From Candidatus Eiseniibacteriota bacterium (GTDB lineage: Bacteria; Eisenbacteria; RBG-16-71-46; SZUA-252): DNA of 64,000 nucleotides. Below are positions 27,212 through 44,745 of the stretch, one piece after another. How positions within the stretch are numbered: the stretch's first letter is position 1; each line of letters begins with the position of its first letter. The stretch is from assembly GCA_003235575.1 (NCBI GenBank), contig QJVW01000115.1, positions 12,290 through 76,289 of the forward strand. The letters run 5' to 3'. Made by a program: the position numbers and the translations under genes. The notes under the pieces were generated by a model. That model saw only the letters and a list, made by a program, of their open reading frames with translations, did no database searches and was not told the DNA's origin.

Positions 27212-29623
27212 ATGGGCGTCATGGACGAAGGAATCCTTCGGGAGTTCCTTGCCGAGAGCCTGGAAGGGCTGGGGCAAGTGGAGCGCGATTTGGTTGCGCT
27301 CGAACGCGATCCCGGCGACGTCGCCAAGATCGGCGGCGTCTTTCGCGTGTTCCACACGATCAAGGGAACGTGCGGATTCTTCGGCTTCACGAAACTCGCC
27401 GCGGTAACGCACGCCGGCGAGAGCCTCCTGAGCCGGCTTCGTGGCGGCGAGCGGGCGCTCTCGCCGGAGATCGTGAACGCCCTCCTCGCTTTGGTCGACA
27501 CGGTCCGAGCCATTCTCGGCAGGATCGAATCGTCGAAGGAAGAAGGAGAGGGCAATTTCGCCCGCCTCATCCAAAGGCTCAACCGCCTGGAGGAGGAAGG
27601 CGCCACCGAAGCACCACCGGCCGCTACGGAACCGCCGCCCGCGCCGACGGCTGCGGGCGCCGCGACGGAGCCGCCCGCTCCCGAAGCGGACACGGCGGTC
27701 ATCCCGCGTGACGGCGGGCTCTTCGGACCCCTCATCGCGAGCGGAAGACTCGACCCCGAAGCGGTCGCGATCGCCGCGCAGCAGCAGCGGCTGGGCGACC
27801 CCCGGCGTCTGGGCGAGATCTTGGTGGACCATGGCGCGCTGCAACCCCAGGACATCCTGGACGCGCTCCTCGTGCGGAGCGAAATGGCGGCCAGCACCCT
27901 CGCGGAGTCGAGCATCCGGGTCGACGTTCACCTCCTGGATCTCCTGATGAACCTTGTGGGCGAACTGGTTCTCGCCCGCAACCAGCTGCTTCAAAACGTC
28001 GCCTCGCAGGATCACGCGGATCTACCCGGAACGGTGCAGCGGTTGAATCACATCACGACCGAGCTGCAGGAGCGGATCATGAAGACCCGCATGCAGCCGA
28101 TCGGCAACGTATGCAACAAGCTCCCGCGCTTGGTGCGCGACATCGCGTCCGCCTGCGGGAAGCAGGTCCGGCTGGAGCTGGAGGGGGTCGATACCGAACT
28201 GGACCGCACGATCATCGAGGCGATTCGCGATCCGTTGACGCACCTCATCCGCAACGCCATCGACCACGGCATCGAGACGACGGAAGCGCGCGTCGCGAAC
28301 GGCAAATCGCCCGAAGGTCTGCTCGTGGTTCGCGCCTTCCACGAAGGCGGGAAGGTGCACCTCGAGGTCGAGGACGACGGCGCGGGGCTGTCCCTCGAGT
28401 CCATTCGCGAACGGGCGCTCCGCCAGAACCTCATTCCGGCGGACCGCGCGGCGCGCATGACGGAGCGCGACTGGTACAACGTGATCTTCCTGCCCGGGTT
28501 CACGACCGCCGCGCGCGTGACGAACGTCTCCGGGCGCGGCGTGGGCATGGACGTGGTGAAGACGAACGTCGAGCGGATCGGCGGCGCGATCGACGTCGAC
28601 TCGAGGCCCGGACACGGCACCACGATGCGGATTCGGATTCCCCTCACGCTCGCCATCGTGCCCGCGCTCGTTATCTCGGTGGACGGCGAGCGCTACGCCA
28701 TTCCGCAGGTGAACCTGATCGAGTTGGTCCGCGTGGAGCGCGCCGAGGCGTCCACGCGCCTTGTGACCGCGTACGACGTGCCGGTGCTTCGCTACCGCGA
28801 GCGGCTCCTTCCCCTGCTCGACCTCCGAGCCATTCTCGGCACCGCGCCGACGCCCGCGCGCGCGGATGGCCCGGAGGGTGACGCGATCTCGATCGTCGTG
28901 CTCCACGCCGACGGTCTCACGGTCGGCCTCGTCGTGGACACCATCGAAGCGTCGCAGGAGATCGTGGTGAAGCCACTGGGCGAGCCGCTTCGCCAAATTC
29001 CCGTGTTCGCGGGCGCGACCATCCTCGGCGACGGCGCGGTCGCGCTCATCCTCGACGTCCCCGGGCTGGCCCGCCACGCCAGGATCTCCCGCTCGGACGG
29101 CGAGATCGAGGAGAGCGCGCCGGCGGAGAACGTGGACCGCGGCGCCATGGATCGCCAGACCCTGGTGGTGTGCACGGTCGGCCCGCGCTGGACCGTCGCG
29201 ATCCCGCAGACGCAGATCGCGCGGCTGGAGGAATTCCGCCGGGCGGACGTGGAGCGGTCGGGCGATCGCGCCATCATCCAGTACCGGGGCGGTCTTCTCC
29301 CGCTCGTGTCCCTTGGCGCGCTGCTCGATCTGGGCGGAACGCACGCGGCGACCGACATCGAGTGGATCGGCGACGCCGACCCCCTCCGCGTGGTGGTTCA
29401 CGAGCGCGAGGGACGCGCCGTCGGTCTGATCGTGGAGGCCGTCGTGGAGATCGTCGAAGAGCGCGTGGCGCCGGGAGGCGGCGACGCATCCACCGGGTTC
29501 GCCGGCGCGGTGGTGGTGCGCGGATCGGTCACGGAATTGATCGACCTCGAAGGGTTGCTGCGGCAGGCGGACGTTCATCGCCACAGCGCGCTGGCGGCGT
29601 CGGCGGAAGGGGGCGCCCGATGA
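27212..29623 (+). CDS. cheA: Chemotaxis histidine kinase CheA with two C-terminal CheW-like (P5) domains
   Basis: P1/Hpt FRVFHTIKGTCGFFGF; P3 dimerisation VDVHLLDLLMNLVGELVLARNQL; P4 N-box HLIRNAIDHGIE, G1 VEDDGAGL, G2 GRGVGMDVV, then GTTMRIRIPLTLAI; CheW domain 1 (ISIVVLHADGLTVGLVVD...) and CheW domain 2 (QTLVVCTVGPRWTVAIP...LIVEAVVEIVE). Confidence 0.95.
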   Translation: MGVMDEGILREFLAESLEGLGQVERDLVALERDPGDVAKIGGVFRVFHTIKGTCGFFGFTKLAAVTHAGESLLSRLRGGERALSPEIVNALLALVDTVRAILGRIESSKEEGEGNFARLIQRLNRLEEEGATEAPPAATEPPPAPTAAGAATEPPAPEADTAVIPRDGGLFGPLIASGRLDPEAVAIAAQQQRLGDPRRLGEILVDHGALQPQDILDALLVRSEMAASTLAESSIRVDVHLLDLLMNLVGELVLARNQLLQNVASQDHADLPGTVQRLNHITTELQERIMKTRMQPIGNVCNKLPRLVRDIASACGKQVRLELEGVDTELDRTIIEAIRDPLTHLIRNAIDHGIETTEARVANGKSPEGLLVVRAFHEGGKVHLEVEDDGAGLSLESIRERALRQNLIPADRAARMTERDWYNVIFLPGFTTAARVTNVSGRGVGMDVVKTNVERIGGAIDVDSRPGHGTTMRIRIPLTLAIVPALVISVDGERYAIPQVNLIELVRVERAEASTRLVTAYDVPVLRYRERLLPLLDLRAILGTAPTPARADGPEGDAISIVVLHADGLTVGLVVDTIEASQEIVVKPLGEPLRQIPVFAGATILGDGAVALILDVPGLARHARISRSDGEIEESAPAENVDRGAMDRQTLVVCTVGPRWTVAIPQTQIARLEEFRRADVERSGDRAIIQYRGGLLPLVSLGALLDLGGTHAATDIEWIGDADPLRVVVHEREGRAVGLIVEAVVEIVEERVAPGGGDASTGFAGAVVVRGSVTELIDLEGLLRQADVHRHSALAASAEGGAR

Positions 29624-30057
29624 GCGAGGAACGCGTGCTGTGCACGTTCCGCGTCGCCGAGCATCTCCTCGGGCTCGACATTTCCGTCATCCAGGAGGTG
29701 TTGCGCCAGCAGGAGATCACGAGGCTTCCGCTCGCGGCGCCCGCGGTGCGCGGCGTCATCAATCTGCGCGGGCGGATCGTGCCCGCCCTCGATCTCCGAC
29801 GCTGCCTCGATCTCCCCGTCGCCGAGGGGGGGCGTCACGACGCGAACATCGTGGCGCGCGAACGGGAGGATGCGCCCGTGAGCCTGCTCGTGGACGAAAT
29901 CGGGGACGTCGTCACGGTGCCCCTGGAGTTGTGCGAAGGAGCTCCGGAAACCATGCGCGCCGCGGCGCGCGAGTTGATCCGCGGGGTGTTTCCCGTTCAC
30001 GACCGGCTGCTTCTCGAACTGGACCTGGGAAAGGTCCTGCGGGTGGCCTACGCCTAG
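29620..30057 (+). CDS. cheW: Chemotaxis coupling protein CheW (the ATG overlaps the cheA stop: ATGA)
   Basis: 145 aa [60 protein letters not shown]. The track ORF 29170 reads through from inside cheA. Confidence 0.9.
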
Positions 30058-30106
30058 ACACCGGGAGGCCCGGCACGGCCGGCCGTCACGGAAGGAGCGA
30101 ACTGTC

Positions 30107-31858
30107 ATGGTTCTCACGATTCGTCGCCAACTGGTCGGGAGCGCGCTCTTGGCGCTTCTGGGGTTCGTCATCTTCGGCGTCGTGGCCTGGTTCACGCTGA
30201 ACGAACTCAAGGTCAACGGCCCGCGTTACCACCGCATCGTCCAGGGCAAGGACCTGGTGGCCGACACCGTGCCGCAATCGGCCACCTTGATCGAGTCCTA
30301 CCTGGGCGTCCACCAGATGCTCGGCGAGACCGACCGGCGACGGCTGGACGACCTGATCCGCGAAAGCCAGCAGCTCCGCGTGCAATTCGAGGAGCGTCAC
30401 CAGCACTGGGAGCAAACGCTTCCCCCGGGCCCCCTGCGCCAGGCGCTCCACGAGCGCGCCTATCCCCCCGCGGCGGAGTTCCTGCGGGTGCGCGACGACG
30501 CGTTCATTCCCGCGGTGCGCGGAGGCGACGAGGAAACGGCGCGGCAGATCGCGGAAGGCGTTCTCAAACCGCTGTACGAGCAGCACATGAAGGCCGTCAT
30601 GGAAGTCGTGCAGCTGGCGACCACGCAGACGGAGCACGAGGAGGCCGAGGCGCTGGCGATCGCCCAGCAGCGGTCCACCCTGGTCCCGCTGGTCGGCCTG
30701 CTCCTGGCGGCGATCACGCTCGCCATCGGGCTGATCCTCTCTCGTCGGATCGTGCGCGCCATCGAGCAGATGCGCCGGGTCGCGGAGCGGACCGCCCGCG
30801 GGGACCTCACGTCCCGCGTCCAGTACACGGCGAAGGACGAGCTCGGAGACCTGGCCGCGTCGACGAACGAAATGGTCGAGTCGCTGCGCGAGGTGCTGTC
30901 GCACATCGGCGAGCGCTCGGTGACGCTGGCCACCGCCTCGGAGGAACTCTCCACCGTCTCCACGCAAATGATCGGAAGCGCCGAGGAAACGTCGCGCCAG
31001 GCGAGCACGGCCTCGGCCGGATCGGAGCAGGTGAGCCGCAGCGTGGAGAGCGTCTCGGCGTCCGTGGAGGAGATGATCGCGAGCATTCAGGAGATCTCCA
31101 AGAACACCAGCGAGGCGGCGCGCGTCGCCACGGTGGCTTCGGGAGAGGCGGACGTCACGAACGCCGCCGTGAACAAGCTCGGCACCAGCAGCGCGGAGAT
31201 CGGCAAGGTGGTGCAGGTCATCAACACCATCGCCCAGCAGACCAACCTCCTGGCGCTGAATGCGACGATCGAGGCCGCCCGCGCGGGCGAGGCCGGAAAG
31301 GGATTCGCGGTGGTCGCCAACGAGGTGAAGGAACTCGCCAACGAGACCGCGACCGCGACGAAGGACATCGGCCGGAAGATCGAGGCCATTCAGGCGGACA
31401 CGACGGACGCGATTCAGGCCATCGGGAAGATCAGCGAGACGATTCAGCAGATCACGGATATCTCCAACTCCATCGCGACCGCGCTGGAACAACAGCTTTC
31501 CACGTCGGGTGAGATCGGCCGGAACCTCGCCGAGGCGGCCCGCGGGAGCGCCGAGATCAGCGGCGGCATCGTGGCGGTCGCCGAGATCGCCCGGGATACC
31601 GCCGGCAGCAGCGAAAGCACGCAGAAGGCGGCGGAGGAACTGGCGCGGTTGGCAGCGGAGCTCCGCGGACTCACGCAGCGGTTTCACTACGCCGAACAGG
31701 GCGTCGACGCGCCGGTCCCCGAGGGGCCGTTCGCGGCGACCACGCCGGGCACGGTGGTGGCCTGGGATGCCGGCCGGGCGGCGGCGCAGCGACCTACGAA
31801 CGAGCGGGACGAGAGACGTCGCGCCGAGGACCGGGACACGCTGGCGGATGCCGGTTGA
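30107..31858 (+). CDS. Methyl-accepting chemotaxis protein (2 TM, roughly 150 aa periplasmic four-helix-bundle-like sensor, HAMP, MCP signalling domain)
   Basis: TM1 [19 protein letters not shown]; TM2 [17 protein letters not shown]; HAMP; highly conserved tip [33 protein letters not shown]. Confidence 0.93.
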
Positions 31859-31918
31859 TCTGACGTCCCGACGAAGCGCGCCGGCGCCGGCCGCCGGAGC
31901 ACGCGGAAGAGGAGGAGC

Positions 31919-32305
31919 ATGATGAAGGCCATGGTGGTAGACGACTCGAGCGCGATGCGCGCGATTCTCACGAAGCAGCTCCGGGAACTGGGCTTCGACG
32001 TCGTGCAGGCGTCGAACGGACAGGAGGCGCTTCGCCTGCTTCACGAAGATGGCGTCGTGGATCTCGTCCTCCTCGATTGGAACATGCCGGGGATGGACGG
32101 GGCCGAAGTGCTGTCGCTGTTTCGCTCCGAGCCCGCCTACCGCGAGATGCGGGTGATGATGGTGACGACGGAGAGCGAGATGTCGCAGGTGACGGTGGCG
32201 TTGGAGGCGGGGGCGAACGAATACCTCATGAAGCCGTTCGACCGCGAGTCCCTCGTCGAGAAGCTCATCCTGCTCGGGATGGATCCGAGCGGCCACACCG
32301 TTTAG
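31919..32305 (+). CDS. cheY: Chemotaxis response regulator CheY
   Basis: 128 aa MMKAMVVDDSSAMRAILTKQL...DLVLLDWNMPGMDG...VMMVTTESE...EYLMKPF; single REC domain. Confidence 0.9.
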   Translation: MMKAMVVDDSSAMRAILTKQLRELGFDVVQASNGQEALRLLHEDGVVDLVLLDWNMPGMDGAEVLSLFRSEPAYREMRVMMVTTESEMSQVTVALEAGANEYLMKPFDRESLVEKLILLGMDPSGHTV

Positions 32306-32315
32306 CGAGGGGCGC

Positions 32316-33395
32316 ATGGGCCGGATTCGAATTTTGGTCGTGGACGACGTCGCGATCGTTCGGCGTTTGGTCGTGAACGCGTTGGCGGTGGACGCGGACA
32401 TTCAGGTCGTCGGGACCGCGGCGAACGGCCGCGAGGCGCTGGCGAAGATTCCCCAGGTCCGCCCCGACTTGATCATTCTGGACTACGAGATGCCGGAGAT
32501 GGACGGCCTCGAGACGCTGAAGGAAGTGCGGCGACTGCACCCCGGCATTCGCGTCATCTTCTTCTCCTCGTACACGCGCCAGGGGGCGAAGGTCTCGCTG
32601 GAGGCGCTCTGGCAGGGAGCCGATGACTACGCCGCGAAGGTCACCGCCGACAATCTCGCGGCGGCGACGCTTTGCGTTCAAAACGACCTGTTGCCGAAGA
32701 TCCGAGCCCTCTGCGCACGCATCACGCGCGACGCGCCGGGCCTTCCTGCGGCGCCCGCGCCGGTGGTGGAAGCCGGCGGCGCGCCCTCCCACGCTCCCGC
32801 CGAAATCGTGGCGATCGGCGCCTCCACGGGCGGACCGCGCGCGCTCTCGGCGGTGATCGAGTCGTTGCCGAACGATTTCGCCCTGCCCATTCTCGTCGTG
32901 CAGCACATGCCGCCGTTGTTCACGCGGTCGTTGGCCGAGCGGCTGGCTTCCCGTTCGACGTTTCGCTGCATCGAGGCGGTCGACGGGTGCGTGGTCGAAC
33001 GGGGCACGATCCTGATCGCACCGGGCGACTGGCACCTGGTGGCGGTCCGGGAGGGAGACGTGGTCCGCGCGCACCTGACGGCGGATCCCCCCGAGAATTC
33101 GTGCCGGCCGGCTGTCGATCCGCTCTTCCGCTCGGTGGCCGAGGCCTACGGCGCCGGGGCGATGGGCATCCTCCTGACCGGCATGGGTCAGGACGGGCTG
33201 GCGGGGGCGCGTCGCATCCGCGAGCGGGGCGGCTCCGTGCTGGCGCAGGACGAGGCGAGCAGCGTGGTCTGGGGGATGCCGGGCGCCGTCGCGCGCGCCG
33301 GGCTCGCGAACAAGATCGTGCCGCTTCCGGAAATGGCGAGCGAGATTCTCAAACTCTCGAAGGCGGCGGGGCGCAATCGCGCCGCGGTTTCGTGA
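32316..33395 (+). CDS. cheB: Chemotaxis protein-glutamate methylesterase CheB (REC plus methylesterase)
   Basis: REC: RILVVDDVAIVRRL...DLIILDYEMPEMDG. CheB catalytic domain: IVAIGASTGGPRAL...VVQHMPPLFTRSLAERL...GMGQDGLAG. Confidence 0.95.
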   Translation: MGRIRILVVDDVAIVRRLVVNALAVDADIQVVGTAANGREALAKIPQVRPDLIILDYEMPEMDGLETLKEVRRLHPGIRVIFFSSYTRQGAKVSLEALWQGADDYAAKVTADNLAAATLCVQNDLLPKIRALCARITRDAPGLPAAPAPVVEAGGAPSHAPAEIVAIGASTGGPRALSAVIESLPNDFALPILVVQHMPPLFTRSLAERLASRSTFRCIEAVDGCVVERGTILIAPGDWHLVAVREGDVVRAHLTADPPENSCRPAVDPLFRSVAEAYGAGAMGILLTGMGQDGLAGARRIRERGGSVLAQDEASSVVWGMPGAVARAGLANKIVPLPEMASEILKLSKAAGRNRAAVS

Positions 33396-34279
33396 CCGAC
33401 CAAAGCACGGGACCCCGCGCCGGCGCCGTCGTGCCGCGACCAGACGCGCCCGGAGTCGATCCGGCCGGCTATGCCTACCTGCAGCGGCTGATGCTGGAGG
33501 AGACCGGGACCATTCTCGAGCCGGGCAAGGAGTACCTCGTCGAAGCGCGGCTCCATGCGTTGGCGCAGCGGGAGGGCTGTGCCTCGGCATCGGCCCTTCT
33601 CGAAGCGCTCCAGACGGAGGAGATTCCGGGACGCCTCCATCGATGGGTGATCGAGGCGATGCTGAACGGTGAGACCTCGTTCTTCCGGGATCACTATCCG
33701 TTCGAGGCCTTGCGAACATCCATCCTTCCGGAATTGATGGGACGACGCGCCGCGGTCAAGACGCTCCACGTCTGGAGCGCGGCGACGGCCAGCGGCCAGG
33801 AGGCGTACAGCCTGGCGATGTTGATCCTCGAGTCCGCGCCCGCCTTCCAGGATTGGCGGATCCGGATCCTCGCCACCGACGTCTCGGAATCGATGCTCGA
33901 ACGCGCCCGGGCGGGCGTGTACCGGCAAATCGAAGTGAATCGGGGGCTTCCCGCCCCCTGCCTCGTGAAGTATTTCGAGCGGTCCGGCCAGGACTGGAAG
34001 GTGAAGGAGCACGTGCGCTCGATGGTCGAATTCGACCACGTCAACCTGGCGCGACCCTGGCCGGCGCTTCCCCAGCTGGACGTGATTTTTCTTCGGAACG
34101 TGCTCCTGTACTTCAGTTCACAAGCCCGCAGGACGATCTTAGAGGGTGTCACGCGACATCTCCGCCCCGACGGGTACCTGTTCCTGGGGGGCGGAGAAAC
34201 GGTTCTCGCTCTCGACCGTACGTACGAATCCATCCGGGTCGGCAAGGCGGTCTGCTTTCGCCGCAAGGCGGCGGTTTGA
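33392..34279 (+). CDS. cheR: Chemotaxis protein methyltransferase CheR (the GTG start overlaps the cheB stop)
   Basis: TSFFRDHYPFEAL...LHVWSAATASGQEAYSLAML...IRILATDVSESMLERARAGVY...DVIFLRNVLLYFS; SAM-dependent methyltransferase CheR motifs. Confidence 0.92.
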   Translation: MTDQSTGPRAGAVVPRPDAPGVDPAGYAYLQRLMLEETGTILEPGKEYLVEARLHALAQREGCASASALLEALQTEEIPGRLHRWVIEAMLNGETSFFRDHYPFEALRTSILPELMGRRAAVKTLHVWSAATASGQEAYSLAMLILESAPAFQDWRIRILATDVSESMLERARAGVYRQIEVNRGLPAPCLVKYFERSGQDWKVKEHVRSMVEFDHVNLARPWPALPQLDVIFLRNVLLYFSSQARRTILEGVTRHLRPDGYLFLGGGETVLALDRTYESIRVGKAVCFRRKAAV

Positions 34280-34310
34280 GCCGGAATCGCAGGACCGACG
34301 AGGGAAACCC

Positions 34311-34793
34311 ATGAGCACGGCGACCATCGATCTTCAGGAATGGCTGACCTGCCTCACCGATGTGGCGAACGATTTGGCCACGAACCATCTCCGGTTCGAG
34401 AGCAGCACGGAACAGGCCGACGCCACGATCGGGGCCGGCGTTCATCCGGCCGTCTACGTCGCCATTCTCGGCTCGCGAAACAGCATGCACCTGGGTCTCT
34501 CCGCCACCACGGCGGGATGTCATGCGCTGGCGCGCGCCTTTCTCGGCCTGCGCGGACGCGAGGATCTCACGGAGCGGGAAGTCATCGACGGGATGAGCGA
34601 GATCCTGAACATCCTGGCGGGCAAGGTGAAGTCCCGCATGTCGACGCGCGATGGATCCCTGAAGCTGGGGCTTCCGATGTTCGTGGCCGGCACCGTCGGG
34701 CACGGCGAGGGCGTCGAGAGGGCGGATCACGAGGTGTTCCTGGGACCGGTCCCGTGCCGGCTCCACGTCTTCCGGCAGAGCCGATCGGTGTAA
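34311..34793 (+). CDS. cheX: CheX/CheC-family chemotaxis phosphatase (CheY-P phosphatase)
   Basis: 160 aa; MSEILNILAGKVKSRM is the characteristic CheX motif and AVYVAILGS...MHLGLS fits the fold. The real ATG is internal to track ORF 34146. Confidence 0.7.
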   Translation: MSTATIDLQEWLTCLTDVANDLATNHLRFESSTEQADATIGAGVHPAVYVAILGSRNSMHLGLSATTAGCHALARAFLGLRGREDLTEREVIDGMSEILNILAGKVKSRMSTRDGSLKLGLPMFVAGTVGHGEGVERADHEVFLGPVPCRLHVFRQSRSV

Positions 34794-34807
34794 GGGGGCC
34801 TACGGTC

Positions 34808-36202
34808 ATGAATCGTCGATCACCAATGTTCACGCGACGCGCGATCCTCTTGATCCCCTTCCTCGCGGCGTTGGTGTTCGCGGTCCCCGCAGCCGACCGG
34901 GCGGACGCAAGCCGGGGGCGGAGCAACCTGGTCCTCGCGGGCGGCGTTCCCGGGGAAACCTTCGGATGCTCCGTGGCCTCCGCGGGCGACGTCAACGGCG
35001 ACGGGTATGTGGACGTCATCGTAGGCGCCTACCAGAGCGGAACCGCCGGGAGCCCAACCGGTCGCGCCTACATCTATTACGGCGGTCCCGGCGCCGACGA
35101 GCGGGCGGACGTGATCCTGACGGGAGAAGCCGCCGGGGACGCGTTCGGCGTCAGCGTGGCCGGCGCGGGCGACGTGAACCGGGACGGCTATGCCGACGTC
35201 ATCGTCGGCGCCTATGAGAACGACGGTCGCGGCGCGAACGCCGGCCGCGCGTACATCTATTTCGGCGGACCGAAGATGGATGCCAGCGCCGACGTCGTCC
35301 TGAACGGCGAAGCGGCGGGCGACGCATTCGGGTATTCCGTGGCGGGCGCGGGCGACGTGAACCGTGACGGCTATGCCGACGTTCTGGTGGGAGCGTACGA
35401 GAACAGCGCCGCCGGCCCCGGCGCCGGGCGCGCGTATCTGTACCACGGCGGGCCGAAGCCCGACGCGGTGGCCGACGTGATCCTCACCGGTGAAGCCGCG
35501 GGAGACCGTTTCGGCATCTCGGTGGCGGGCGCGGGCGACGTGAACGGCGATGGATTCGCCGATGTCGTCGTCGGCGCCTACCAGAACGACGCCGGGGGCC
35601 GGGATGCCGGGCGCGCCTACGTGTACTACGGCGCCCCGCGCCTGGGCATGCGACCGAACGCCGTCTTGACGGGATCCGCGGAGGGCGACGCCTTCGGCTT
35701 CGCCGTCGCGGGCGCCGGAGACGTCAACAAGGATGGGTTCGCGGACGTGATCGTCGGCGCCTACCACAACGACGCCGGCGGAAAGGACGCCGGAAGGGCG
35801 TTCGTCTACTTCGGGGGCGCGAACTTCTCGACGAAGGCTGACGCCGTTCTGACCGGCGAGGGCGCGGGCGATGCCTTCGGATACGCCGTCGGCGCCGCCG
35901 GCGACGTGAACGCCGACGGCTACGCCGACCTCTTGGTCGGCGCGTATGGAAACGACGCGGGCGGGTCCGCCGCGGGCCGGGCCTACGTGTTCTACGGGGG
36001 CACGACGCCCCACCTGACCTCCGACTTCAGCCTCACCGGTGGATCGACCCTCGACAACCTCGGCTTCGCGGTCGCGGGATCCGCCGACCTGAACGGCGAC
36101 GGCTACGCGGATATCGTCGTCGGGGCGCCCTACAGCGACTCGGGGCGCGCGCACGTCATCACGACGGTGGGCGCGAACTCCCGCCCCGTCGCCTCGCGCT
36201 AG
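34808..36202 (+). CDS. Secreted FG-GAP repeat (integrin-alpha-like beta-propeller) protein with seven or more repeats
   Basis: Signal peptide MNRRSPMFTRRAILLIPFLAALVFAVPAADRADA. Roughly 60-aa repeats of F/YG.SVA.AGDVNGDGYADVIVGAY...GRAYVYYGG, the FG-GAP/Ca-binding D-x-N-x-D-G signature. It is the last gene of the che operon. Confidence 0.9.
   Translation: MNRRSPMFTRRAILLIPFLAALVFAVPAADRADASRGRSNLVLAGGVPGETFGCSVASAGDVNGDGYVDVIVGAYQSGTAGSPTGRAYIYYGGPGADERADVILTGEAAGDAFGVSVAGAGDVNRDGYADVIVGAYENDGRGANAGRAYIYFGGPKMDASADVVLNGEAAGDAFGYSVAGAGDVNRDGYADVLVGAYENSAAGPGAGRAYLYHGGPKPDAVADVILTGEAAGDRFGISVAGAGDVNGDGFADVVVGAYQNDAGGRDAGRAYVYYGAPRLGMRPNAVLTGSAEGDAFGFAVAGAGDVNKDGFADVIVGAYHNDAGGKDAGRAFVYFGGANFSTKADAVLTGEGAGDAFGYAVGAAGDVNADGYADLLVGAYGNDAGGSAAGRAYVFYGGTTPHLTSDFSLTGGSTLDNLGFAVAGSADLNGDGYADIVVGAPYSDSGRAHVITTVGANSRPVASR
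34930..36190 (+). repeat. Roughly 180-bp periodic coding tandem repeats (FG-GAP units) within the preceding CDS
   Basis: The repeated nucleotide blocks ggcgcgggcgacgtgaac(c/g)g(c/t)gacggctatgccgacgt recur about every 180 bp. Confidence 0.7.
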
Positions 36203-36263
36203 CAGCGATCTCCCGCTCCACCACGCACGACGAATCGCTTCGTAGGTGCCGATTCCGGATGAT

Positions 36264-36282
36264 GCGCGGATTCGTTCCGCGC
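36264..36282. terminator. GC-rich 7-bp hairpin (GCGCGGA ttcgt TCCGCGC) in the 90-bp gap between the convergent FG-GAP gene and the REC-GAF-HD-GYP gene
   Basis: Perfect stem seen in the sequence with no U-tract. It may act as a bidirectional terminator. Confidence 0.25.
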
Positions 36283-36292
36283 GGGGCCGGGC

Positions 36293-37966
36293 CTAGGACG
36301 TGTGCCCGGCTTCCTCGGGGTCAGCCGCTGTGCGCGGGGGCGCCCAGGGCGCCGTGTTCTTCACGACGGGGATGGTGCCTTTGTTGAGGGCTTCCACGAA
36401 CACGGAGACGACTTCCGGCGCGAACTGGGTTCCCGCCTTCTCGGTCATCTGCGCCACCGCCTGTTCCATGGTGAGCCCGGCGCGATAGGGGCGATCCGTG
36501 GTCATGGCGTCGAATGCATCCGCGACGTTCACGATCTTCGCCGCGAGCGTCATCTCCTCGCCCGTCAACCCATCGGGGTATCCCTTTCCGTCCACCCGCT
36601 CATGGTGGTGACGGATCATGTCGATGCAGCGCTCCAGGAAGCGGACGCCGCGGACCATCTCGGCGCCGCGGACGGGATGCATCTTGACCATCCTCCACTC
36701 CTCGTCGGTCAGCGCACCCGGCTTGTGGAGGACCTTGTCCTCGGTGTGTACCTTTCCGATGTCATGCAGGAAGGCGCCGAATTGGATCCGCTGCACCTCC
36801 TCGGGGTCGAACTCCAGCGCCCGCGCGATGCCCACCGAATAGGCCGCGACGCGCTCGGTATGGCCGTGCGTGTACGGATCCTTCTCTTCGATCCGGGAGA
36901 CGAGCAGCCGGACGGTGGAGACGTAGGCCTCCTGGAGATCCTTGAATAGCCGCGCGTTCTCGATGGCGATGCCGGCCGATTCCGAGAGCGCACGAAGCAT
37001 TTCCAGGTCCGCCGCCTGGAACTCCTGGCCGCTGACCTTCTCCCCGATCGCCAGGACGGCGACCAGCCGGTTCTTCATGATGACCGGCGAGACCAGCGTC
37101 AATCCCGCCGCGTAGAGCTGCCCCACCTCGCGCTCGAACCCGCGGTGGTGCTCCACGGAGGCGAGTCGCACCGGGCGCGGGTCCTCGCTCCCGGGTGCGT
37201 GGAGGGAACGAATGAATTCTCCGTTGTAGTCGAGCACGATCGAGCGCGCCTGCTCCTCCTTCATGCCCTTGAAATTGGAGGCGTCCAGGCGCGTCGGGCT
37301 CTCCCGGTCGTCGGTGAGGAAAAGACAGGCGGCGTTGACGCGCAGCTGGCCCATCACGCTGAGGATCAGCGTTCCCAAGAGGCCTTCGAGATCAAGCGAC
37401 GCGTTGAGCTGGTGCGTCAAGCCCATCAGCGTCTCGAGGCTGTAGACCTGGAACCGAAGCTCCTTGTTCCGGACCAGCAGATCCTCGCGGTTTCGCTGCA
37501 CCTCGGATTCCAGCTCCTGGTTCTTTCCCGCCAGGGCGTCGTGCCGCTCCAGCCGCTCGAAGATGCGACGGACCTTGATGAGCAGTTCCTTGGGAGAGAA
37601 CGGCTTCGTCAGGTAGTCGTCCGCGCCGTGCATCAGCCCCTGCAGCCGCGAGTCGACCTCCGCGCTGGCGGACACCATCACGATCGGGATATGCGCGGTG
37701 TCGCGCGTACTCTTCATCGCGGCGCACACTTCGAATCCCGTCTTCTTCGGCAGACGCAGGTCCAGGATCACGAGATGCGGCGGGGTGCGGCGCACGATCT
37801 CCAGCGCATCCTCCCCCGACATCGCGGTCAGGACGCGGTATCCGTTCTGGGTCAGCGAGATCTGAAGCAGCTCGACAACGCGGCGATCGTCGTCCACGAC
37901 GAGGATGGTCCGCTTTCCTTTCGCAGGACCGGCTTCGGTGGCCGGCCGGAGGCTTTCGGTGCTCAC
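36293..37966 (-). CDS. Response regulator REC-(coiled coil)-GAF-HD-GYP (c-di-GMP phosphodiesterase-type output)
   Basis: REC: TILVVDDDRRVVELLQ...HLVILDLRLPKKTGFEVCAAMK...DDYLTKPF. GAF-like middle region. HD-GYP: FLHDIGKVH ... IRHHHERVDGKGYPDGLTGEEMTLAAKIVNVADAFDAMT. Confidence 0.9.
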   Translation of the reverse strand: MSTESLRPATEAGPAKGKRTILVVDDDRRVVELLQISLTQNGYRVLTAMSGEDALEIVRRTPPHLVILDLRLPKKTGFEVCAAMKSTRDTAHIPIVMVSASAEVDSRLQGLMHGADDYLTKPFSPKELLIKVRRIFERLERHDALAGKNQELESEVQRNREDLLVRNKELRFQVYSLETLMGLTHQLNASLDLEGLLGTLILSVMGQLRVNAACLFLTDDRESPTRLDASNFKGMKEEQARSIVLDYNGEFIRSLHAPGSEDPRPVRLASVEHHRGFEREVGQLYAAGLTLVSPVIMKNRLVAVLAIGEKVSGQEFQAADLEMLRALSESAGIAIENARLFKDLQEAYVSTVRLLVSRIEEKDPYTHGHTERVAAYSVGIARALEFDPEEVQRIQFGAFLHDIGKVHTEDKVLHKPGALTDEEWRMVKMHPVRGAEMVRGVRFLERCIDMIRHHHERVDGKGYPDGLTGEEMTLAAKIVNVADAFDAMTTDRPYRAGLTMEQAVAQMTEKAGTQFAPEVVSVFVEALNKGTIPVVKNTAPWAPPRTAADPEEAGHTS

Positions 37967-39666
37967 GAGTTGGTCTCCATGGAAACGGACGTATGGTTTC
38001 CGGTCGCGTCGCGCGCGCCGGCGTGCTGGTCGGAATCGCGGGTCTCGGCGGCGTGACCGCCGTCCGGAATGGTCGCGCCGGCGCCCAGGGGGTCGAGCAC
38101 GGCCCGATCCACGGCATGACCGGAGGCGCGCTCGGCGGCGGCGGCCGACGCCTGTTCGGCCCGGAGGCGGGAACGGCGCTCGGTCTTCTCCAGCACGCCC
38201 AGGAACACCTCCACCATCGAGGGATCGAACGGGGCGCCCCAGTTTTCCGAGATGACCTGTCGCGCCTTGTCGCGCGGCAGGGCCCGCCGATAGGGCCGTT
38301 CGCTGGTCATCGCGACGTACGCGTCGACCAGGGAGACGATGCGGGCGCCGAGGGGAATGTCCTGCCCCTTCAGGCCCGACGGATAGCCCTCGCCGCCCCA
38401 GCGCTCATGGTGATTGCGCACGACCTCCACGACCTCGGGCGAGAAGTCCATCTCCTCGAGGATCTGCGCACCACGCGCCGGATGTTGCTTGATCAGCGAC
38501 CACTCCTCCGCGGAGAGATGCGCCGGATTCTTGAGGATGAGATGACTGACCGCCAGCATGCCGATGTCGCGGAGTGCCGCCCCGTAGATCAACGCCTTCA
38601 CGTCGGCGCGGGGCACTTGGAGGAGCCGCGCCATGGCGGTGACCAGGCGCACCACGCGCTCGGTGGATCCCTTCGCATACACGTCGCGGCTTTCGATGAG
38701 GGACATCATGCCCCGCACCACGCCCAGATTTCGATCTTCCATCTGGCGATGGAACCGGGCATTGGCGATCGCGACGGCGGCCTGGTGCGCCAGAATCGTG
38801 AGCAGGTCCCGCTCGTCCTCCTGGAAACCGCGGTCTCCGCCGCGCGCGCCCAGGAAGAGCATGCCGATCAGTTCGCGACGCACCCACAAGGCGACGCCCC
38901 ATTCGAGTCCGGAGGCGCGGAGCGTGCGCGCGGCGCCCGCGGCGTCGGGGAGCGCCTCGGCTCCGACCATCGGCTCCGCGGCCGCCGTGGGCGCCAGCGC
39001 CAGGGCGTCCTCGAGGGTCGTGAACGTGTCGGCCTCCGCCATGGCCGCGATCGAAGCCGCCGACAGTTTCGTGTCGCGGAATTGGTCCCGCGCGAATCCA
39101 CGAACCTGGCGGGGGATGAGAACGCCCTCGCGGTCCGGGTCGTCGAGAAAGAGCGCCAGGCGCTCGACGCCGAATTGGCCCATGACCGAGAGCCCGAAGA
39201 GGTTGAGCACCTCATCCAGATCGTGGGCGAGGTTCAGCGCCTGCGTGATCTCGAAGAGATTTCTGAACTCGACGATCTTCAGGCGCAGCTTGGTTTGCAG
39301 CGCGGCGTGCTCCGCCACGCTCGGCCCGCCGGGCGGAACCGACGCTTCCTCCGTGGGGGAGTTCGAGGCGTAGATCTGCGCGCCCGATTCGAGGAGCGCC
39401 TCGCGGACGCCGCCGCGAATCCCCCGGACGATGATCCGCCGGGCCGCGCCTTCGTAGGCGCGCGCTTGCCGCTGGATCACGGACACGGCGAGCGCGGAGA
39501 CGTCGCTGACCTCGTCGAAGTCGAGGTGCACTTCCCGCGCGTCCCGGGCCAGACATTGAACCAGGAGTTGATCGAGCGCGCGTGCGCCCGCGGCGTCGAC
39601 GACCCCCCGGAGCGAGAACCGGAACTCGTCGCGCGGTTCGCCGCGGACGAGGTGAAGGCCCTTCAA
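37963..39666 (-). CDS. STAS (anti-sigma-antagonist-like)-GAF-HD-GYP protein; probable TTG start overlapping the upstream stop (TTGA)
   Basis: STAS: LKGLHLVRGEPRDEFRFSLRGVVDAAGARALDQLLVQCLA...EVHLDFDEVSDVSALAVSVI...RIIVRGIRGGVREALLESG. GAF region. HD-GYP: AALRDIGMLAV ... VRNHHERWGGEGYPSGLKGQDIPLGARIVSLVDAYVAMT. The track ORF extends to 40500 through roughly 270 aa of Arg/Gly-rich sequence that overlaps the upstream gene and is implausible. Confidence 0.75.
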   Translation of the reverse strand: MKGLHLVRGEPRDEFRFSLRGVVDAAGARALDQLLVQCLARDAREVHLDFDEVSDVSALAVSVIQRQARAYEGAARRIIVRGIRGGVREALLESGAQIYASNSPTEEASVPPGGPSVAEHAALQTKLRLKIVEFRNLFEITQALNLAHDLDEVLNLFGLSVMGQFGVERLALFLDDPDREGVLIPRQVRGFARDQFRDTKLSAASIAAMAEADTFTTLEDALALAPTAAAEPMVGAEALPDAAGAARTLRASGLEWGVALWVRRELIGMLFLGARGGDRGFQEDERDLLTILAHQAAVAIANARFHRQMEDRNLGVVRGMMSLIESRDVYAKGSTERVVRLVTAMARLLQVPRADVKALIYGAALRDIGMLAVSHLILKNPAHLSAEEWSLIKQHPARGAQILEEMDFSPEVVEVVRNHHERWGGEGYPSGLKGQDIPLGARIVSLVDAYVAMTSERPYRRALPRDKARQVISENWGAPFDPSMVEVFLGVLEKTERRSRLRAEQASAAAAERASGHAVDRAVLDPLGAGATIPDGGHAAETRDSDQHAGARDATGNHTSVSMETNS

Positions 39667-41369: not shown

Positions 41370-41392
41370 GGAGTCGGCTCCCTTCGGCGTGC

Positions 41393-42922
41393 CTACCTGG
41401 GTCCGCCCGGCTGAATTCCCTCGAGCCAGTCGGGGATCTTTGGTTCGATCGGCGCCGTCGACGGGGTCTCGCCCTCCGGCTCGGCCGCGGCCGCGGGCGC
41501 GTCGTTCGCTTCCGGCACCGCGTCGTGAAGCGACGCGGGATCGACGGGGCGCGGCTCCACGTGATCTTTGGGCCCCGCCGGCGTGACGGGTTCGAACGGA
41601 TCGTCGAACGAAGCGTCCGCCGAGGGCGCCTCCGCCGGGGGCTCGAAGCGGCTCACCTCGTCCTCTACGGGAACGCCGTCCGCCGCGGCGCCGTCGGCCG
41701 GGCCTTCCGTGATCGCGGCGTCGTGGTTCTCGTCGATTTCGATCGCACTCATCCGTGACGGTTCGCTCTCCTCGACCCCGACGGGTTCGGCCACCGTCGG
41801 CGGCATCGCCGCTCCCTCTTCGAATTCTTCGATCGACGCACCGAGCCGCTCGCGCAACCCGCGGGTCCGCGCCACCAGCGATTCCAAGGACTCCAGCGCC
41901 GCCGGCGATACCGCCGGCGCGCCGACATCCGCATCGGTGCCGATCGACGCCACCGCGGCCTTCGCGTCCTCGCTGCTCGATTGAATGGAGGCGATGGTGT
42001 CGCCCACCTTGAATTCGATCTCGCTCGAGAGCCGGGAGATCGTGTCGGTGGCCTCGCGCGCGTACTCCGCGAGGCGACGCGTTTCCTCGGCGATCGACGC
42101 GAACGCCTCGCTGCCCGAGCGGGTGGCCTCGAGGGCCGCGTTCAGCGCCAGAAGCGTCGCGCGGTTGGTGACTTTCTCGGCCACGCCGGTCAGTTCGTTC
42201 GCGCGCATCAGCCCCGCGGCCAGATCCTCGATGCCGTCGGCGGCCGTGCGCACCAGCGCGTCGACCATCGCGGCGGGCGACCCGTTGCCGCCGTTCCCCG
42301 CCGGCGTGGAGCCCGACTGAAGCGTCCGCAGGACGGCGGCGAGATCGGTCTCGAGCGAGGCGAGCCCCTCGTCATAGGTCCGAAGCGTACCGACCGCCTT
42401 GCGCCCGACCTCGCGATCGTACGGCGCGGTGGGAGGAACGGCTTCGTCGGAGCCGATCAACTCATCGGCCGCGTACGCGGGACGCGGCTCATGAACCTCC
42501 GGCTCCGTTGGGGAGTCGTCCTGATCCCGGCGCACCTTCTCGAGCTCGAGGAGCGCCATCGCCGAGGCGCGTTGCGCGGCGGCGCTGGACGCGACCTCCC
42601 GGTAGAGCGACTGCCACGGTTCCGTGCGAAACGAGGCCGGCGGCTCGTTCGGCGCTTGGTCGGAAAGCGCGATGTCGAGTAGCGCGGACACCTTCGCGGC
42701 GGGCGCGCCCGCGGCCTGAGCGGCCAGCGCCGTGCAAATGCCGGCGCTGGCGAGGCCGACGACGACCCCGACGGCGACGCCAAGCGTTCCGCCGAGGCCG
42801 AACGCGGCTGCGGCAGCCGCGACGGCGCCGAGGAACGAGACGACGAACACGCCAGCGGACGGCTTGGCGGCGCCCTGCCTATCCGGCGTGTGCTTCCCCG
42901 ATTCGCGAGCGGCATCCGTCAT
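41393..42922 (-). CDS. Short membrane-anchored MCP-like protein (divergent MCP signalling tip, no HAMP, acidic/Pro-rich disordered C-terminal tail of about 200 aa)
   Basis: N-terminal hydrophobic segments VFVVSFLGAVAAAAAAFGLGGTLGVAVGVVVGLASAGICTALAA. MCP tip homolog ELTGVAEKVTNRATLLALNAALEATRSGSEAFASIAEETRRLAEYAREATDTISRLSSEI (compare [33 protein letters not shown] in the canonical MCP). The tail is rich in E/D/P/A. Confidence 0.7.
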   Translation of the reverse strand: MTDAARESGKHTPDRQGAAKPSAGVFVVSFLGAVAAAAAAFGLGGTLGVAVGVVVGLASAGICTALAAQAAGAPAAKVSALLDIALSDQAPNEPPASFRTEPWQSLYREVASSAAAQRASAMALLELEKVRRDQDDSPTEPEVHEPRPAYAADELIGSDEAVPPTAPYDREVGRKAVGTLRTYDEGLASLETDLAAVLRTLQSGSTPAGNGGNGSPAAMVDALVRTAADGIEDLAAGLMRANELTGVAEKVTNRATLLALNAALEATRSGSEAFASIAEETRRLAEYAREATDTISRLSSEIEFKVGDTIASIQSSSEDAKAAVASIGTDADVGAPAVSPAALESLESLVARTRGLRERLGASIEEFEEGAAMPPTVAEPVGVEESEPSRMSAIEIDENHDAAITEGPADGAAADGVPVEDEVSRFEPPAEAPSADASFDDPFEPVTPAGPKDHVEPRPVDPASLHDAVPEANDAPAAAAEPEGETPSTAPIEPKIPDWLEGIQPGGPR

Positions 42923-42938
42923 GACGTGCTCCCTTCCT

Positions 42939-43505
42939 TCATCGACTACCGAGCCCGCTCAGGCGAAAGGCGGCGGGCGGTGCGACCGAATCCATCAACG
43001 ACCAGTAATCCAGATGCCGTGCGTGGCGGCCTTGAACGTCGTACACGGCGAGGACGGCGGGCTCGCCGTCGGCGGGCGCCGCCGTGGCGGAGGCCTCCAA
43101 CTCGGAGAGGTCGGCCACGTCGCCGGCCGCGACGGCCGGAGGAACAGGCTCGGGGTCCGGAACGGCGCACTTCAGTTCCACCACGTCGCGCCCCGGAATC
43201 AGCCGCGGCATGCCACGAACCAGGAGCGCGATCCGATCGGTGCCCCGCTCGAGGACCACGGCATAGGCGGGCGGGCTCGGCGATGCGTCGCCGCCGAGCG
43301 CGGATTCGACGTCGATCGCCGGCACGACGGAGCCGCGAAACGCGACCACGCCGGCCATCGGAGGAACGCGTCCCGGAAGCCGCGCCAGGTGCTCGGCCTC
43401 GAGCAGTCCCGCCACTTCGTCCACGGGGGCGGCGAGAAGTTCGTCGCCGGCCTCGAAGACGACGAGGCCGCGCACGCCGAGCACCGTCCGCCTTGGTTGA
43501 TCCAT
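42939..43505 (-). CDS. CheW-like coupling protein with an acidic C-terminal extension (start at the internal MDQPRR)
   Basis: MDQPRRTVLGVRGLVVFEAGDELLAAPVDEVAGLLEAEHLARLPGRVPPMAGVVAFRGSVVPAIDVESALG...AYAVVLERGTDRIALLVRGMPRLIP is a CheW fold. The track ORF starts 21 codons upstream. Confidence 0.75.
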   Translation of the reverse strand: MDQPRRTVLGVRGLVVFEAGDELLAAPVDEVAGLLEAEHLARLPGRVPPMAGVVAFRGSVVPAIDVESALGGDASPSPPAYAVVLERGTDRIALLVRGMPRLIPGRDVVELKCAVPDPEPVPPAVAAGDVADLSELEASATAAPADGEPAVLAVYDVQGRHARHLDYWSLMDSVAPPAAFRLSGLGSR

Positions 43506-43965
43506 GGAGCCACTCCGTCCTTTGAAGGCGAGCTGAAACCTGTACGAATGAAGAAAGGCAAGTAACATGCCACGAACGACTTCCGCCGAATCACGCTAAC
43601 CCTTTGCCGTGTAGCGGCTTCGTACTCATCCAATCGGCAGGTTCCCGGCGTTGTGGAGGGCTTTTGGTCAGCGGCCGCCGGGCGTGTTGCAATCCTGGCC
43701 GTATTCCGCAATCCCCCACCCATCCGGCGGTAAAACACACCCACCCAGAGGGCTAAATCCGACCAGAGGCTGGGCTGATCGAGCCCTTCGGCGCCGCCGC
43801 GGCGGCGAATCCACTTGCGACCATGTTGTTGTAAATAAATCGCTTACACGTCTGGAGCGACGTTTCCGGCGGCTCGGCACGCGGCGTGCAGTGGCAGGGA
43901 GTCGAAGGCCGCGGAGATCGGAAGCCGCGGCGAGGAGTGGACGGAAAAGAGAGGGGGGCAGGGAC

Positions 43966-44745
43966 ATGGCGGGAACGAGAAAGGCGGTCGCGGGCAAGGC
44001 AGCTCTCCGGAAGATCCGGCCGCACGCCTATGTAGCCATGAATTGCCTTCTTCTTACTCGGGCGGAAGGTACGCCTCAAAACGGTGATCCCTTGCCGCAG
44101 GAGGATGTGAATGCGTACCTCGACGCGTTGCGCGACCAATTGGAAGCCAACGTGCCGCTTCCGCCCGAGCGGACCCGTCTTCTATCTCGGTACGACATCG
44201 CCGCGTGGCGGCGTCTGGCCGGCGCGACCCACGGCTCGCTGAAGTACACGATCTACCGGACCGCGCAAGACCTGCTGCTCGTGTCGGTGGGGATCTTCGA
44301 ACAGAGCGGTCCGTACGTGCCGTCCCGTCGCGAGGGAATGCTGCCCGGCGAGGAAGCCGACATGGGACGGAGTCCGGGCTGGTACCACTTCTCGTACACG
44401 TACGGCGAGCTTCTCGAGAATCCGACGTCGACGTTGGGAACGGTGCTCGAGAAGCTGACCGTGAGCCTGGAGCGGTACCACAAGATGCTCTCGCACATGA
44501 AGGGCGAGTACTGGAGCATGGTGTCGCGGTTCGAGGATGCGCACGTGCTTCGGCTCGAGCGCACGGTGGACGAGGACGCCAGGGAACAGGCGATCCGTGA
44601 AATGCAGGACCGTCTTCTCGACGCCTACGGCGAATGGAAGCGCACCGGGCAACGGAAGCACTTGGACCAAATCCGCGGCATCGCGCGCGAGATCCGCACG
44701 CTTTCGCCCGACTTCACCTTCTCGCTTCCCGCGGGGAATCCCTAG
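43966..44745 (+). CDS. Hypothetical protein (259 aa), divergently transcribed from the Che-like cluster; start at the internal MAGTRK
   Basis: Amino-acid composition is not antisense-like (Y, W, K, E-rich: GWYHFSYTYGELLENPTSTLGTVLEKLTVSLERYHKMLSHMKGEYWSMVSRFE). I recognise no family. The upstream 105 codons of the track ORF are Arg/Gly-rich. Confidence 0.55.
   Translation: MAGTRKAVAGKAALRKIRPHAYVAMNCLLLTRAEGTPQNGDPLPQEDVNAYLDALRDQLEANVPLPPERTRLLSRYDIAAWRRLAGATHGSLKYTIYRTAQDLLLVSVGIFEQSGPYVPSRREGMLPGEEADMGRSPGWYHFSYTYGELLENPTSTLGTVLEKLTVSLERYHKMLSHMKGEYWSMVSRFEDAHVLRLERTVDEDAREQAIREMQDRLLDAYGEWKRTGQRKHLDQIRGIAREIRTLSPDFTFSLPAGNP

Follow-up and report, generated by a model that had tools for sequence, protein, structure and literature searches.

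A Che-like gene cluster with a predicted kinase-dead CheA beside a canonical chemotaxis operon in Candidatus Eisenbacteria

We analyzed a stretch of 64,000 nucleotides from a Candidatus Eisenbacteria bacterium (contig QJVW01000115.1, positions 12,290 to 76,289; hereafter the window). A 16-kb region of the window (27212-43505) contains a canonical che operon on the plus strand, which lies tail-to-tail with a five-gene Che-like cluster on the minus strand (Table 1). The open reading frame (ORF) listing, translation and Pfam searches gave the plus-strand order cheA-cheW-mcp-cheY-cheB-cheR-cheX-FG-GAP (27212-36202), and the ORFs and Pfam matches on the minus strand gave the order CheW-like protein, short MCP, pseudo-CheA, STAS-GAF-degenerate HD-GYP protein and REC-GAF-HD-GYP protein (43505-36293). 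The Che-like cluster, found in each Eisenbacteria locus retrieved, has two conserved pseudo-enzymes among its five proteins, unlike the ordinary plus-strand operon, and this suggests that the cluster is a receptor-array scaffold that signals without a kinase of its own.

A preliminary description of this DNA had named the same genes, and each of them was confirmed by ORFs and Pfam at the coordinates given there. The coupled starts that it reported, an ATGA overlap at 29620 and a GTGA overlap at 33392, are both real, and its distance of 90 bp between the stops of the operon and the Che-like cluster is exact. Because the observation concerns gene order, the question of chance does not apply to the genes themselves.

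Table 1. Features of the window, with positions counted from its first nucleotide
Feature	Position	Strand	Remarks
CheA	27212-29623	+	Pfam Hpt, H-kinase_dim, HATPase_c, two CheW stretches
CheW	29620-30057	+	Pfam CheW, E=8.7e-28; start overlaps cheA stop (ATGA)
MCP	30107-31858	+	Pfam HAMP and MCPsignal; transmembrane, periplasmic region, canonical hairpin tip
CheY	31919-32305	+	Pfam Response_reg; single-domain response regulator
CheB methylesterase	32316-33395	+	Pfam REC and CheB_methylest
CheR methyltransferase	33392-34279	+	Pfam CheR_N and CheR; GTG start overlaps cheB stop
CheX-type CheY-P phosphatase (predicted)	34311-34793	+	Pfam CheX, E=1.9e-9; start refined, ribosome-binding site checked
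FG-GAP beta-propeller protein	34808-36202	+	Pfam FG-GAP x7; signal-like N-terminus; 14 bp after cheX
Spacer between convergent stop codons	36203-36292		exactly 90 bp
REC-GAF-HD-GYP protein	36293-37966	-	Pfam REC, GAF, HD_5
STAS-GAF-degenerate HD-GYP protein	37963-39666	-	Pfam STAS, GAF, HD_5; TTG start overlaps upstream stop
Pseudo-CheA, 568 aa	39663-41369	-	Pfam: sub-threshold CheW match only; P1-like, P3-like, degenerate P4, P5
Short MCP-like protein	41393-42922	-	Pfam MCPsignal partial, E=3.2e-11
CheW-like coupling protein	42939-43505	-	Pfam CheW partial, E=5.1e-15; first gene of the Che-like cluster
ECF sigma factor	24785-25609 (longest ORF)	+	Pfam Sigma70_r2/r4_2; real start probably near 25085
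zf-HC2 anti-sigma factor	about 25606-27063	+	Pfam zf-HC2; directly upstream of cheA
Stand-alone REC	8536-9039	-	just downstream of HK1/HK2
HK1, HisKA-HATPase-GAF-HD-GYP hybrid kinase	8973-11558	-	
HK2, HisKA-HATPase-GAF-HD-GYP hybrid kinase	about 11561-14419	-	38% identical to HK1
REC-GGDEF-like protein	13945-15201	-	motif GGDDF, possibly degenerate

The plus-strand operon is an ordinary member of the canonical chemotaxis kind. CheW, MCP, CheY, CheB and CheR all scored over the Pfam gathering threshold. The domain order of CheA is P1 (with His48), a putative MshEN/GSPII-like insert in place of P2, P3, P4 and a duplicated P5/CheW domain, and H48 and the intact N, G1 and G2 boxes (FHTIKG, HLIRNAIDHG, DDGAG and GRGVGMD) are kept in the orthologues. 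The acceptor pocket of CheY is complete (DD, D, T, K), as is that of the CheB receiver (REC) domain, and the CheB motifs GASTGG, QHMP and GMGxDG are also kept in orthologues. The CheX orthologues are 50-63% identical, and the CheX of the window carries DGMSEILN, which fits D-x3-E-x2-N, a pattern that we take to be the CheX phosphatase motif. The annotation of the window proteins revealed no flagellar genes within the 64 kb.

We then analyzed pseudo-CheA. A fold test recovered the P1-P3-P4-P5 fold, although the homology of its P1 and P3 to those of CheA was seen at the level of structure only and is beyond profile-profile detection. When the protein was compared with the canonical CheA family by hhalign, residues 385-554 were aligned to CheA residues 446-629 with a probability of 85%, an alignment that covers the end of P4 and P5 only. 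Since hhalign places residue 385 onward on the CheA sequence after the G2 box, the ATP lid and the G2 segment are absent from pseudo-CheA, and Pfam gave no HATPase_c match in the protein. None of the 18 aligned family members has a His on helix B of P1 (residues 50-67). Manual alignment placed an invariant Arg58 at the position of the canonical H48, and it further showed that the N-box Asn is replaced by Glu/Asp303 (DPLDRFVDE in place of DPLTHLIRN) and that the G1 box reads IEGRV. Pseudo-CheA keeps the CheA fold without the catalytic apparatus, having neither the phospho-His nor an ATP site. Of the CheA proteins in the window, that of the plus-strand operon alone is catalytically competent, as the preliminary description had stated for this region: the residues that are intact in CheA (H48 and the N, G1 and G2 boxes) are those that pseudo-CheA lacks.

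The search for homologues of pseudo-CheA returned 170 matches, which come from metagenome-assembled genomes of Candidatus Eisenbacteria and annotated as hypothetical proteins, with more than 50% identity throughout among the matches listed. With a profile run against 1.84 billion cluster representatives, only three full-length pseudo-CheA clusters (at 50% identity) were recovered, and all other matches covered a P5-like region only. With three full-length clusters only, the pseudo-CheA family therefore appears to be limited to the Candidatus Eisenbacteria phylum. Literature searches aimed at kinase-dead CheA proteins with an HD-GYP output and at chemotaxis in Eisenbacteria gave no account of this cluster.

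The second pseudo-enzyme is the STAS-GAF protein. In all 33 orthologues the HD pair is changed to RD (LRDIGM), the DG of the GYP motif is changed to GG (HHERWGGEGYP), and the first metal His is gone (KGSTERV), with S, N, T, G or A taking its place across the orthologues. The protein does not have the HD-GYP motif set, and to judge from these residues it is a conserved pseudo-enzyme, predicted to serve as a non-catalytic adaptor or sensor. The short MCP has an N-terminal two-helix membrane hairpin and a divergent hairpin-tip region; neither a periplasmic sensor domain nor a HAMP domain was detected in its sequence or by Pfam. A BLASTP comparison with the canonical MCP covered only the tip and revealed a 2-residue deletion at the hairpin. 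CheB and CheR are not among the five genes of the cluster.

Between the CheW-like gene and the IMPDH gene lie about 1.9 kb (43568-45466) with several overlapping ORFs and no Pfam match. At the same place in one of the loci without a che operon (L041), there is a minus-strand gene of 259 aa, also without a Pfam match.

The likely output of the Che-like cluster is the REC-GAF-HD-GYP protein. Its acceptor pocket is full (DDD, D, S/T, K) and invariant in 26 orthologues, as are the metal and GYP motifs HGHTERV, LHDIGK and HHHERVDGKGYP, so that both HD and HHExxDGxGYP are intact. The best solved relatives of the protein are PmGH (4mcw, 1.4e-47) and V-cGAP3 (5z7c, 3.4e-43), and we predict from its motifs that it is an active cyclic-dinucleotide phosphodiesterase. 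By motif, the REC domain is phosphorylatable, as the preliminary description had stated: its acceptor pocket is complete, and the HD and HHExxDGxGYP motifs accompany it.

The similarities of this REC domain point away from the chemotaxis receivers. It is 46% identical to the stand-alone REC at 8536-9039 (E=6e-38), compared with 30% for CheY and 32% for the REC domain of CheB, and among solved receivers the PleD and PhoP types match it best (E about 1e-27), compared with 1.8e-14 for CheY. Just upstream of the stand-alone REC are the two hybrid kinases HK1 and HK2, which together with two proteins of the Che-like cluster place four GAF-HD-GYP proteins inside 35 kb. HK1 orthologues (63-86% identity) share contigs with pseudo-CheA both in genomes that have the che operon next to the Che-like cluster (che+) and in genomes that do not (che-), and the order of the whole block of two-component and cyclic di-GMP (c-di-GMP) genes at 8536-15201 is the same in the che- genome L042. 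Because of the REC similarity and the conserved synteny, HK1 and HK2 are likelier candidates than CheA as phosphodonors of the REC-GAF-HD-GYP protein, as far as sequence comparison can tell.

To place the region in its phylum, the genomes were scanned with pseudo-CheA, which gave 36 loci, and the window proteins were mapped onto these loci by tblastn. The terms che+ and che- refer to this junction only. All 36 loci carry the Che-like cluster, with the same gene order wherever the locus reaches the neighboring genes, and IMPDH is upstream of it in every locus extending that far. The che operon is convergent with it at the same site in seven loci (L002, L008, L009, L010, L013, L014 and L017), and CheA orthologues led to the same arrangement in three further assemblies (L037, L038 and L039), for a total of 10 loci. 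At 11 other loci (L011, L019, L021, L022, L023, L027, L029, L034, L041, L035 and L036) the che operon is absent from the junction. In nine of these, the ATP synthase operon (atpZ/atpB) comes next after the REC-HD-GYP gene, within about 550-850 bp and on the same strand; the exceptions, L035 and L036, lack the che operon and keep the pair of genes for the extracytoplasmic function (ECF) sigma factor and its anti-sigma factor alone.

A che- contig of 817 kb matches the window in gene order across the whole neighborhood, with the block of ECF, che and FG-GAP genes as the one difference. The shared order is DHPS, FtsH, TilS, IMPDH, the Che-like cluster, ATP synthase, TsaD, REC-GGDEF, HK2, HK1, REC, PriA, TPR, Rho, DUF1385 and RF1. 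In a metagenome scan anchored on CheR, all nine informative contigs (CheR at least 62% identical) have the FG-GAP gene and/or the REC-HD-GYP gene directly after cheX. The convergent arrangement, whose conservation the preliminary description had proposed as a check, is found in all loci with an Eisenbacteria-type che operon (the 10 loci and nine contigs), but 11 loci have the Che-like cluster alone. Unlinked clusters in orthologous genomes, which the same description had named, along with phosphotransfer to CheY and CheB only, as evidence that would count against its proposal, are seen in part, insofar as these 11 loci have no adjacent che operon, but every Eisenbacteria-type che operon found is at the junction.

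We also built a rough, midpoint-rooted neighbor-joining tree of the Che-like proteins. The che+ loci fall into three clades, and the che- loci fall into one large clade and the deepest clade, with L011 nested among che+ relatives. The pattern of the tree implies either that che is old and was lost repeatedly or that it was gained once, with losses afterward.

Three further observations were made in these loci. In the complete chromosome OY969801.1 (L013), the genes for the REC-GAF-HD-GYP protein (13431-15046) and CheR (17030-17846) are each split across frames, which probably reflects assembly or sequencing errors rather than pseudogenes. A related cheY-cheB-cheR-cheX operon is present on a metagenome contig (L060, 1-8492; CheY 69% and CheR 54% identical), where convergent genes for an Exo_endo_phos protein and a prolyl oligopeptidase stand in place of the Che-like cluster; this could be an unlinked arrangement. 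A gene for a CdaA-type diadenylate cyclase (a c-di-AMP synthase) is located at 52163-53029 of the window, downstream of DHPS and FtsH, and also in L041; its position is ordinary housekeeping synteny.

The genes at the two ends of the che operon vary in their own ways. The FG-GAP protein is predicted from its sequence features to be secreted or periplasmic. Its gene is on the che strand in the window and in L002, L008, L009, L014 and L017, it is on the strand of the Che-like cluster in L010, L013, L037 and L050 (with a 4-bp overlap with the REC-HD-GYP gene in L037), and L038 and L039 do not have it. No inverted repeats were found flanking the gene; the matches obtained were internal to the FG-GAP repeats, and inverted repeats were rejected as the cause of the strand flips. 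At the other end, the ECF/zf-HC2 pair precedes cheA also in L037, L038 and L039. The pair covaries with che, being gone together with it in nine che- loci and kept without it in L035 and L036. The pair and the che operon form part of one variable block, and the pair may regulate the operon.

The 90-bp spacer between the two transcription units was scanned and folded. We found no convincing intrinsic terminator in it on either strand; the one candidate was a GC hairpin that lacks a U tract, and the folding energy was no better than that of shuffled sequence (z about 0.2). A terminator at the junction was rejected on account of the missing U tract and the energies at the level of the shuffles.

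The gene content, the loss of catalytic residues, the distribution of the genes across genomes and the similarities of the REC domain were observed directly. We lean toward reading them as two separate modules that are neighbors for historical reasons, with the Che-like cluster (module B) independent of the neighboring CheA. Since the operon is missing here from about half of the related genomes, adjacency is poor evidence for an exchange of phosphate; and because the region is highly syntenic across the phylum (about 40 kb), conserved adjacency is expected from vertical inheritance alone. The adjacency of the che operon and the Che-like cluster is probably historical.

In such an arrangement, module A (27212-36202, plus strand) is a complete conventional chemotaxis operon in which signals would pass from MCP through CheW to CheA. 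CheA would phosphorylate CheY for motor output and CheB for adaptation together with CheR, and CheX would take the phosphate off CheY-P. Along with the ECF/anti-sigma pair and the variable FG-GAP gene, module A makes up a 9-12 kb accessory block, present or absent by genome. The tail-to-tail layout would follow from module A occupying, or having been lost from, the space that separates module B and the ATP synthase operon. For module B (43505-36293, minus strand), we infer a receptor-array-like scaffold made of a membrane-anchored MCP stub without a sensor domain, the CheW-like protein and the kinase-dead CheA. Its predicted output would be the hydrolysis of cyclic dinucleotides by the REC-GAF-HD-GYP protein, with the STAS-GAF-degenerate HD-GYP protein acting as a non-catalytic adaptor or ligand sensor. 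If the REC of module B is phosphorylated, the likelier donors would be the orthodox HisKA-HATPase-GAF-HD-GYP kinases at 8973-14419.

Several points weigh against two independent modules. Module B contains no competent kinase, and the case for HK1 and HK2 as its candidate phosphodonors comes from REC similarity and conserved synteny. Each Eisenbacteria-type che operon found sits at this junction (10 loci and nine metagenome contigs), and the convergent stops are only 3-90 bp apart; such constancy of the junction and short spacing are compatible with selection for linkage. The FG-GAP gene belongs to one transcription unit in some genomes and to the other in others, and with its 4-bp overlap in L037 the junction is shared by the two units to some degree.

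One way in which the two clusters could be coupled is through c-di-GMP. The HD-GYP output and the nearby GAF-HD-GYP proteins would set the c-di-GMP level, and an MshEN-like domain in CheA would read that level and tune the kinase or the transfer to CheY. The domain in question is a conserved segment of about 60 residues between P1 and P3 (CheA residues about 168-225, nucleotides about 27713-27886), at the usual place of P2, with the sequence GGLFGPLIASGRLDPEAVAIAAQQQ-RLGDPR-RLGEILVDHGALQPQDILDALLVR. Pfam found no domain in this linker, even at E-values of up to 10. However, a profile of nine orthologous segments (CheA residues about 160-235) matched the MshEN/GSPII domains of Thermus thermophilus PilF (6f8l, E=1e-12; 6ejf, E=1e-6), as well as Vibrio cholerae MshE (5htl, E=0.0098) and PilB N-domains. 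The AlphaFold2 model of the segment (pLDDT 77) is a four-helix unit, and its top Foldseek matches were MshE with c-di-GMP bound (5htl; prob 0.99, TMq 0.61, E=0.14) and PilF GSPII domains, the Foldseek E-values being weak, at 0.14 and above. The MshEN-like assignment comes from this profile search of the PDB and the fold search, and is to be read as a prediction.

The half-sites of the segment gave a divided picture. The second half-site (CheA residues 199-222) fits the relaxed 24-residue MshEN motif of Wang et al. (PMC5013675), and this is the single match of the motif in the 84,388 residues of the six-frame translation of the window. The relaxed motif is present in most Eisenbacteria CheA orthologues, and some have no match. 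The first half-site shows GLF or GLL and no R-L-G, and the spacer has 6 residues rather than 5; because the first half-site lacks Arg-Leu-Gly, binding of c-di-GMP by the CheA segment is uncertain.

If canonical CheA carries an MshEN-like domain, c-di-GMP could conceivably connect the HD-GYP cluster with CheA, and we give this about the same chance as direct phosphotransfer. MshEN fusions to CheA, CheX and HD-GYP have been listed from sequence analysis alone (PMC5013675), and the window encodes four GAF-HD-GYP proteins and a REC-GGDEF-like protein. On the other hand, a diffusible messenger needs no gene linkage. Taken with the incomplete first half-site, the longer spacer, the weak Foldseek E-values and the orthologues without the motif, this leaves c-di-GMP coupling of the two clusters as a rather doubtful explanation of their arrangement.

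A related che operon with a different gene order is found in L040 (8945-19453; CheA 51% identical), where it adjoins fliE-J and motAB, includes genes for a globin and a PAS-rich MCP, and has a PilZ-CheX fusion at its end. By its domains, the fusion would be another c-di-GMP input into such operons, and as such it speaks for coupling through the messenger.

The preliminary description had suggested that the juxtaposition reflects cross-talk from CheA to the REC domain of module B. Canonical CheA would then be the phosphodonor of the REC-GAF-HD-GYP protein, chemoreceptor input would drive c-di-GMP hydrolysis, and the clusters would be linked because they form one pathway. It would explain why module B, which has no active kinase, has a fully competent REC, and it agrees with the finding that the che operon, where present, is always at this junction. 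A precedent comes from Comamonas testosteroni, in which a motility CheA phosphorylates the response regulator of a second pathway (PMC6391922). The comparative data did not support the suggestion. The 11 loci without an adjacent che operon keep module B with its REC unchanged and equally conserved: REC identity is 0.86 within che+ lineages, 0.87 within che- lineages and 0.83 from one group to the other. No fixed difference and no alignment column sets the groups apart, and the alpha-1 region, the REC acceptor pocket and the HD-GYP motifs are invariant in both. Moreover, CheY and CheB resemble this REC less than orthodox receivers do, orthodox HisKA kinases are conserved nearby in che+ and che- genomes, and with about 40 kb of conserved synteny, adjacency is expected without selection. 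We regard phosphotransfer from CheA to this REC as improbable.

Equally unlikely, in our estimate, is a single chemotaxis and c-di-GMP circuit in which the kinase-dead scaffold gates the HD-GYP phosphodiesterase, the MshEN-like domain of CheA reads the local c-di-GMP, and CheA might phosphorylate the REC. Mixed arrays, in which pseudo-CheA, the CheW-like protein and the short MCP would co-assemble with canonical CheA, CheW and MCP through P3 heterodimers or shared P5/CheW rings so that the dead kinase acts as a dominant modulator, are very improbable, since module B is kept in lineages without a che operon at the locus, the short MCP has a divergent tip with a 2-residue hairpin deletion, and P1 and P3 of pseudo-CheA have diverged past profile-profile detection.

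With two separate modules as the reading that we favor, the features that deserve experiment are the Eisenbacteria-wide cluster with its kinase-dead CheA and the MshEN-like segment of the canonical CheA. If the MshEN-like domain of CheA binds c-di-GMP, it would provide a direct second-messenger input to a chemotaxis kinase, which has so far been noted bioinformatically only (PMC5013675). Because the phylum is uncultured, the present value of these findings is in testable constructs, not in explaining a known phenotype.

Module A resembles the flagellar-type CheA-CheW-MCP-CheY-CheB-CheR operons with CheX: all core parts are here, with the catalytic residues intact. It differs from them in having a putative MshEN/GSPII-like domain in place of P2 and an appended gene for an FG-GAP propeller. 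The nearest relative with a different gene order, the L040 operon, lies beside fliE-J and motAB. A survey of CheA proteins reports a duplicated CheW/P5 domain in 99% of the CheAs of class F5 in the Wuichet-Zhulin scheme, and the CheA here has the same duplication (PMC10782961). The plus-strand operon is possibly of class F5, a lead taken by analogy from the duplicated CheW domain (PMC10782961), not from class-specific models. The putative MshEN-like segment in CheA resembles the MshEN domain of MshE and the GSPII domain of PilF (PMC5013675) in its modeled tandem helical-hairpin unit and in a second half-site that fits the relaxed motif, but differs in the missing Arg-Leu-Gly of the first half-site, the spacer that is one residue longer and the absence of a Pfam match.

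For pseudo-CheA, the closest parallel is a protein called CheA3, described in the same survey as having kept P1 and P5 around an internal HATPase-like region without the Mg2+/ATP-binding residues (PMC10782961). Pseudo-CheA likewise has a degenerate internal kinase region. CheA3 keeps the P1 phospho-His, whereas pseudo-CheA has Arg58 and no helix B His in 18 sequences; because of this, pseudo-CheA cannot be a phospho-relay substrate in the fashion of CheA3. We take CheA3 to be the Rhodobacter sphaeroides protein, which is reportedly phosphorylated in trans by CheA4.

The Che and Flm pathways of Comamonas testosteroni, as presented in the abstract of the report on them, are similar in that a motility pathway stands beside a second Che-like pathway, and differ in that the second pathway is not described there as kinase-less (PMC6391922), whereas here it has a dead CheA only. 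The comparative data obtained here also speak against dependence on the neighboring CheA. The REC-GAF-HD-GYP protein resembles the RpfG-type REC-HD-GYP proteins in having a REC domain upstream and intact HD and HHExxDGxGYP motifs. Unlike RpfG-type proteins, PmGH and V-cGAP3, it has a GAF domain between REC and HD-GYP; its candidate substrates are c-di-GMP or 3'3'-cyclic GMP-AMP.

The Wsp/WspR system of Pseudomonas is a Che-like pathway whose output is an enzymatic response regulator, a GGDEF cyclase. The cluster described here is like it in combining genes for an MCP, a CheW and a CheA homologue with one for a REC-bearing output protein that metabolizes c-di-GMP, by prediction in this case. 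It is unlike it in having a dead CheA, no CheB or CheR, an HD-GYP output and an extra STAS-GAF pseudo-HD-GYP protein. By its sequences, the Che-like cluster is similar to a Che-like pathway with an enzymatic response-regulator output, but its CheA has neither the phospho-His nor the ATP-binding residues of that family. According to the survey of CheA proteins, P1, P3, P4 and P5 are the functional core of the CheA family (PMC10782961), and a lineage that keeps the CheA fold but not its chemistry would reveal what the scaffold alone does.

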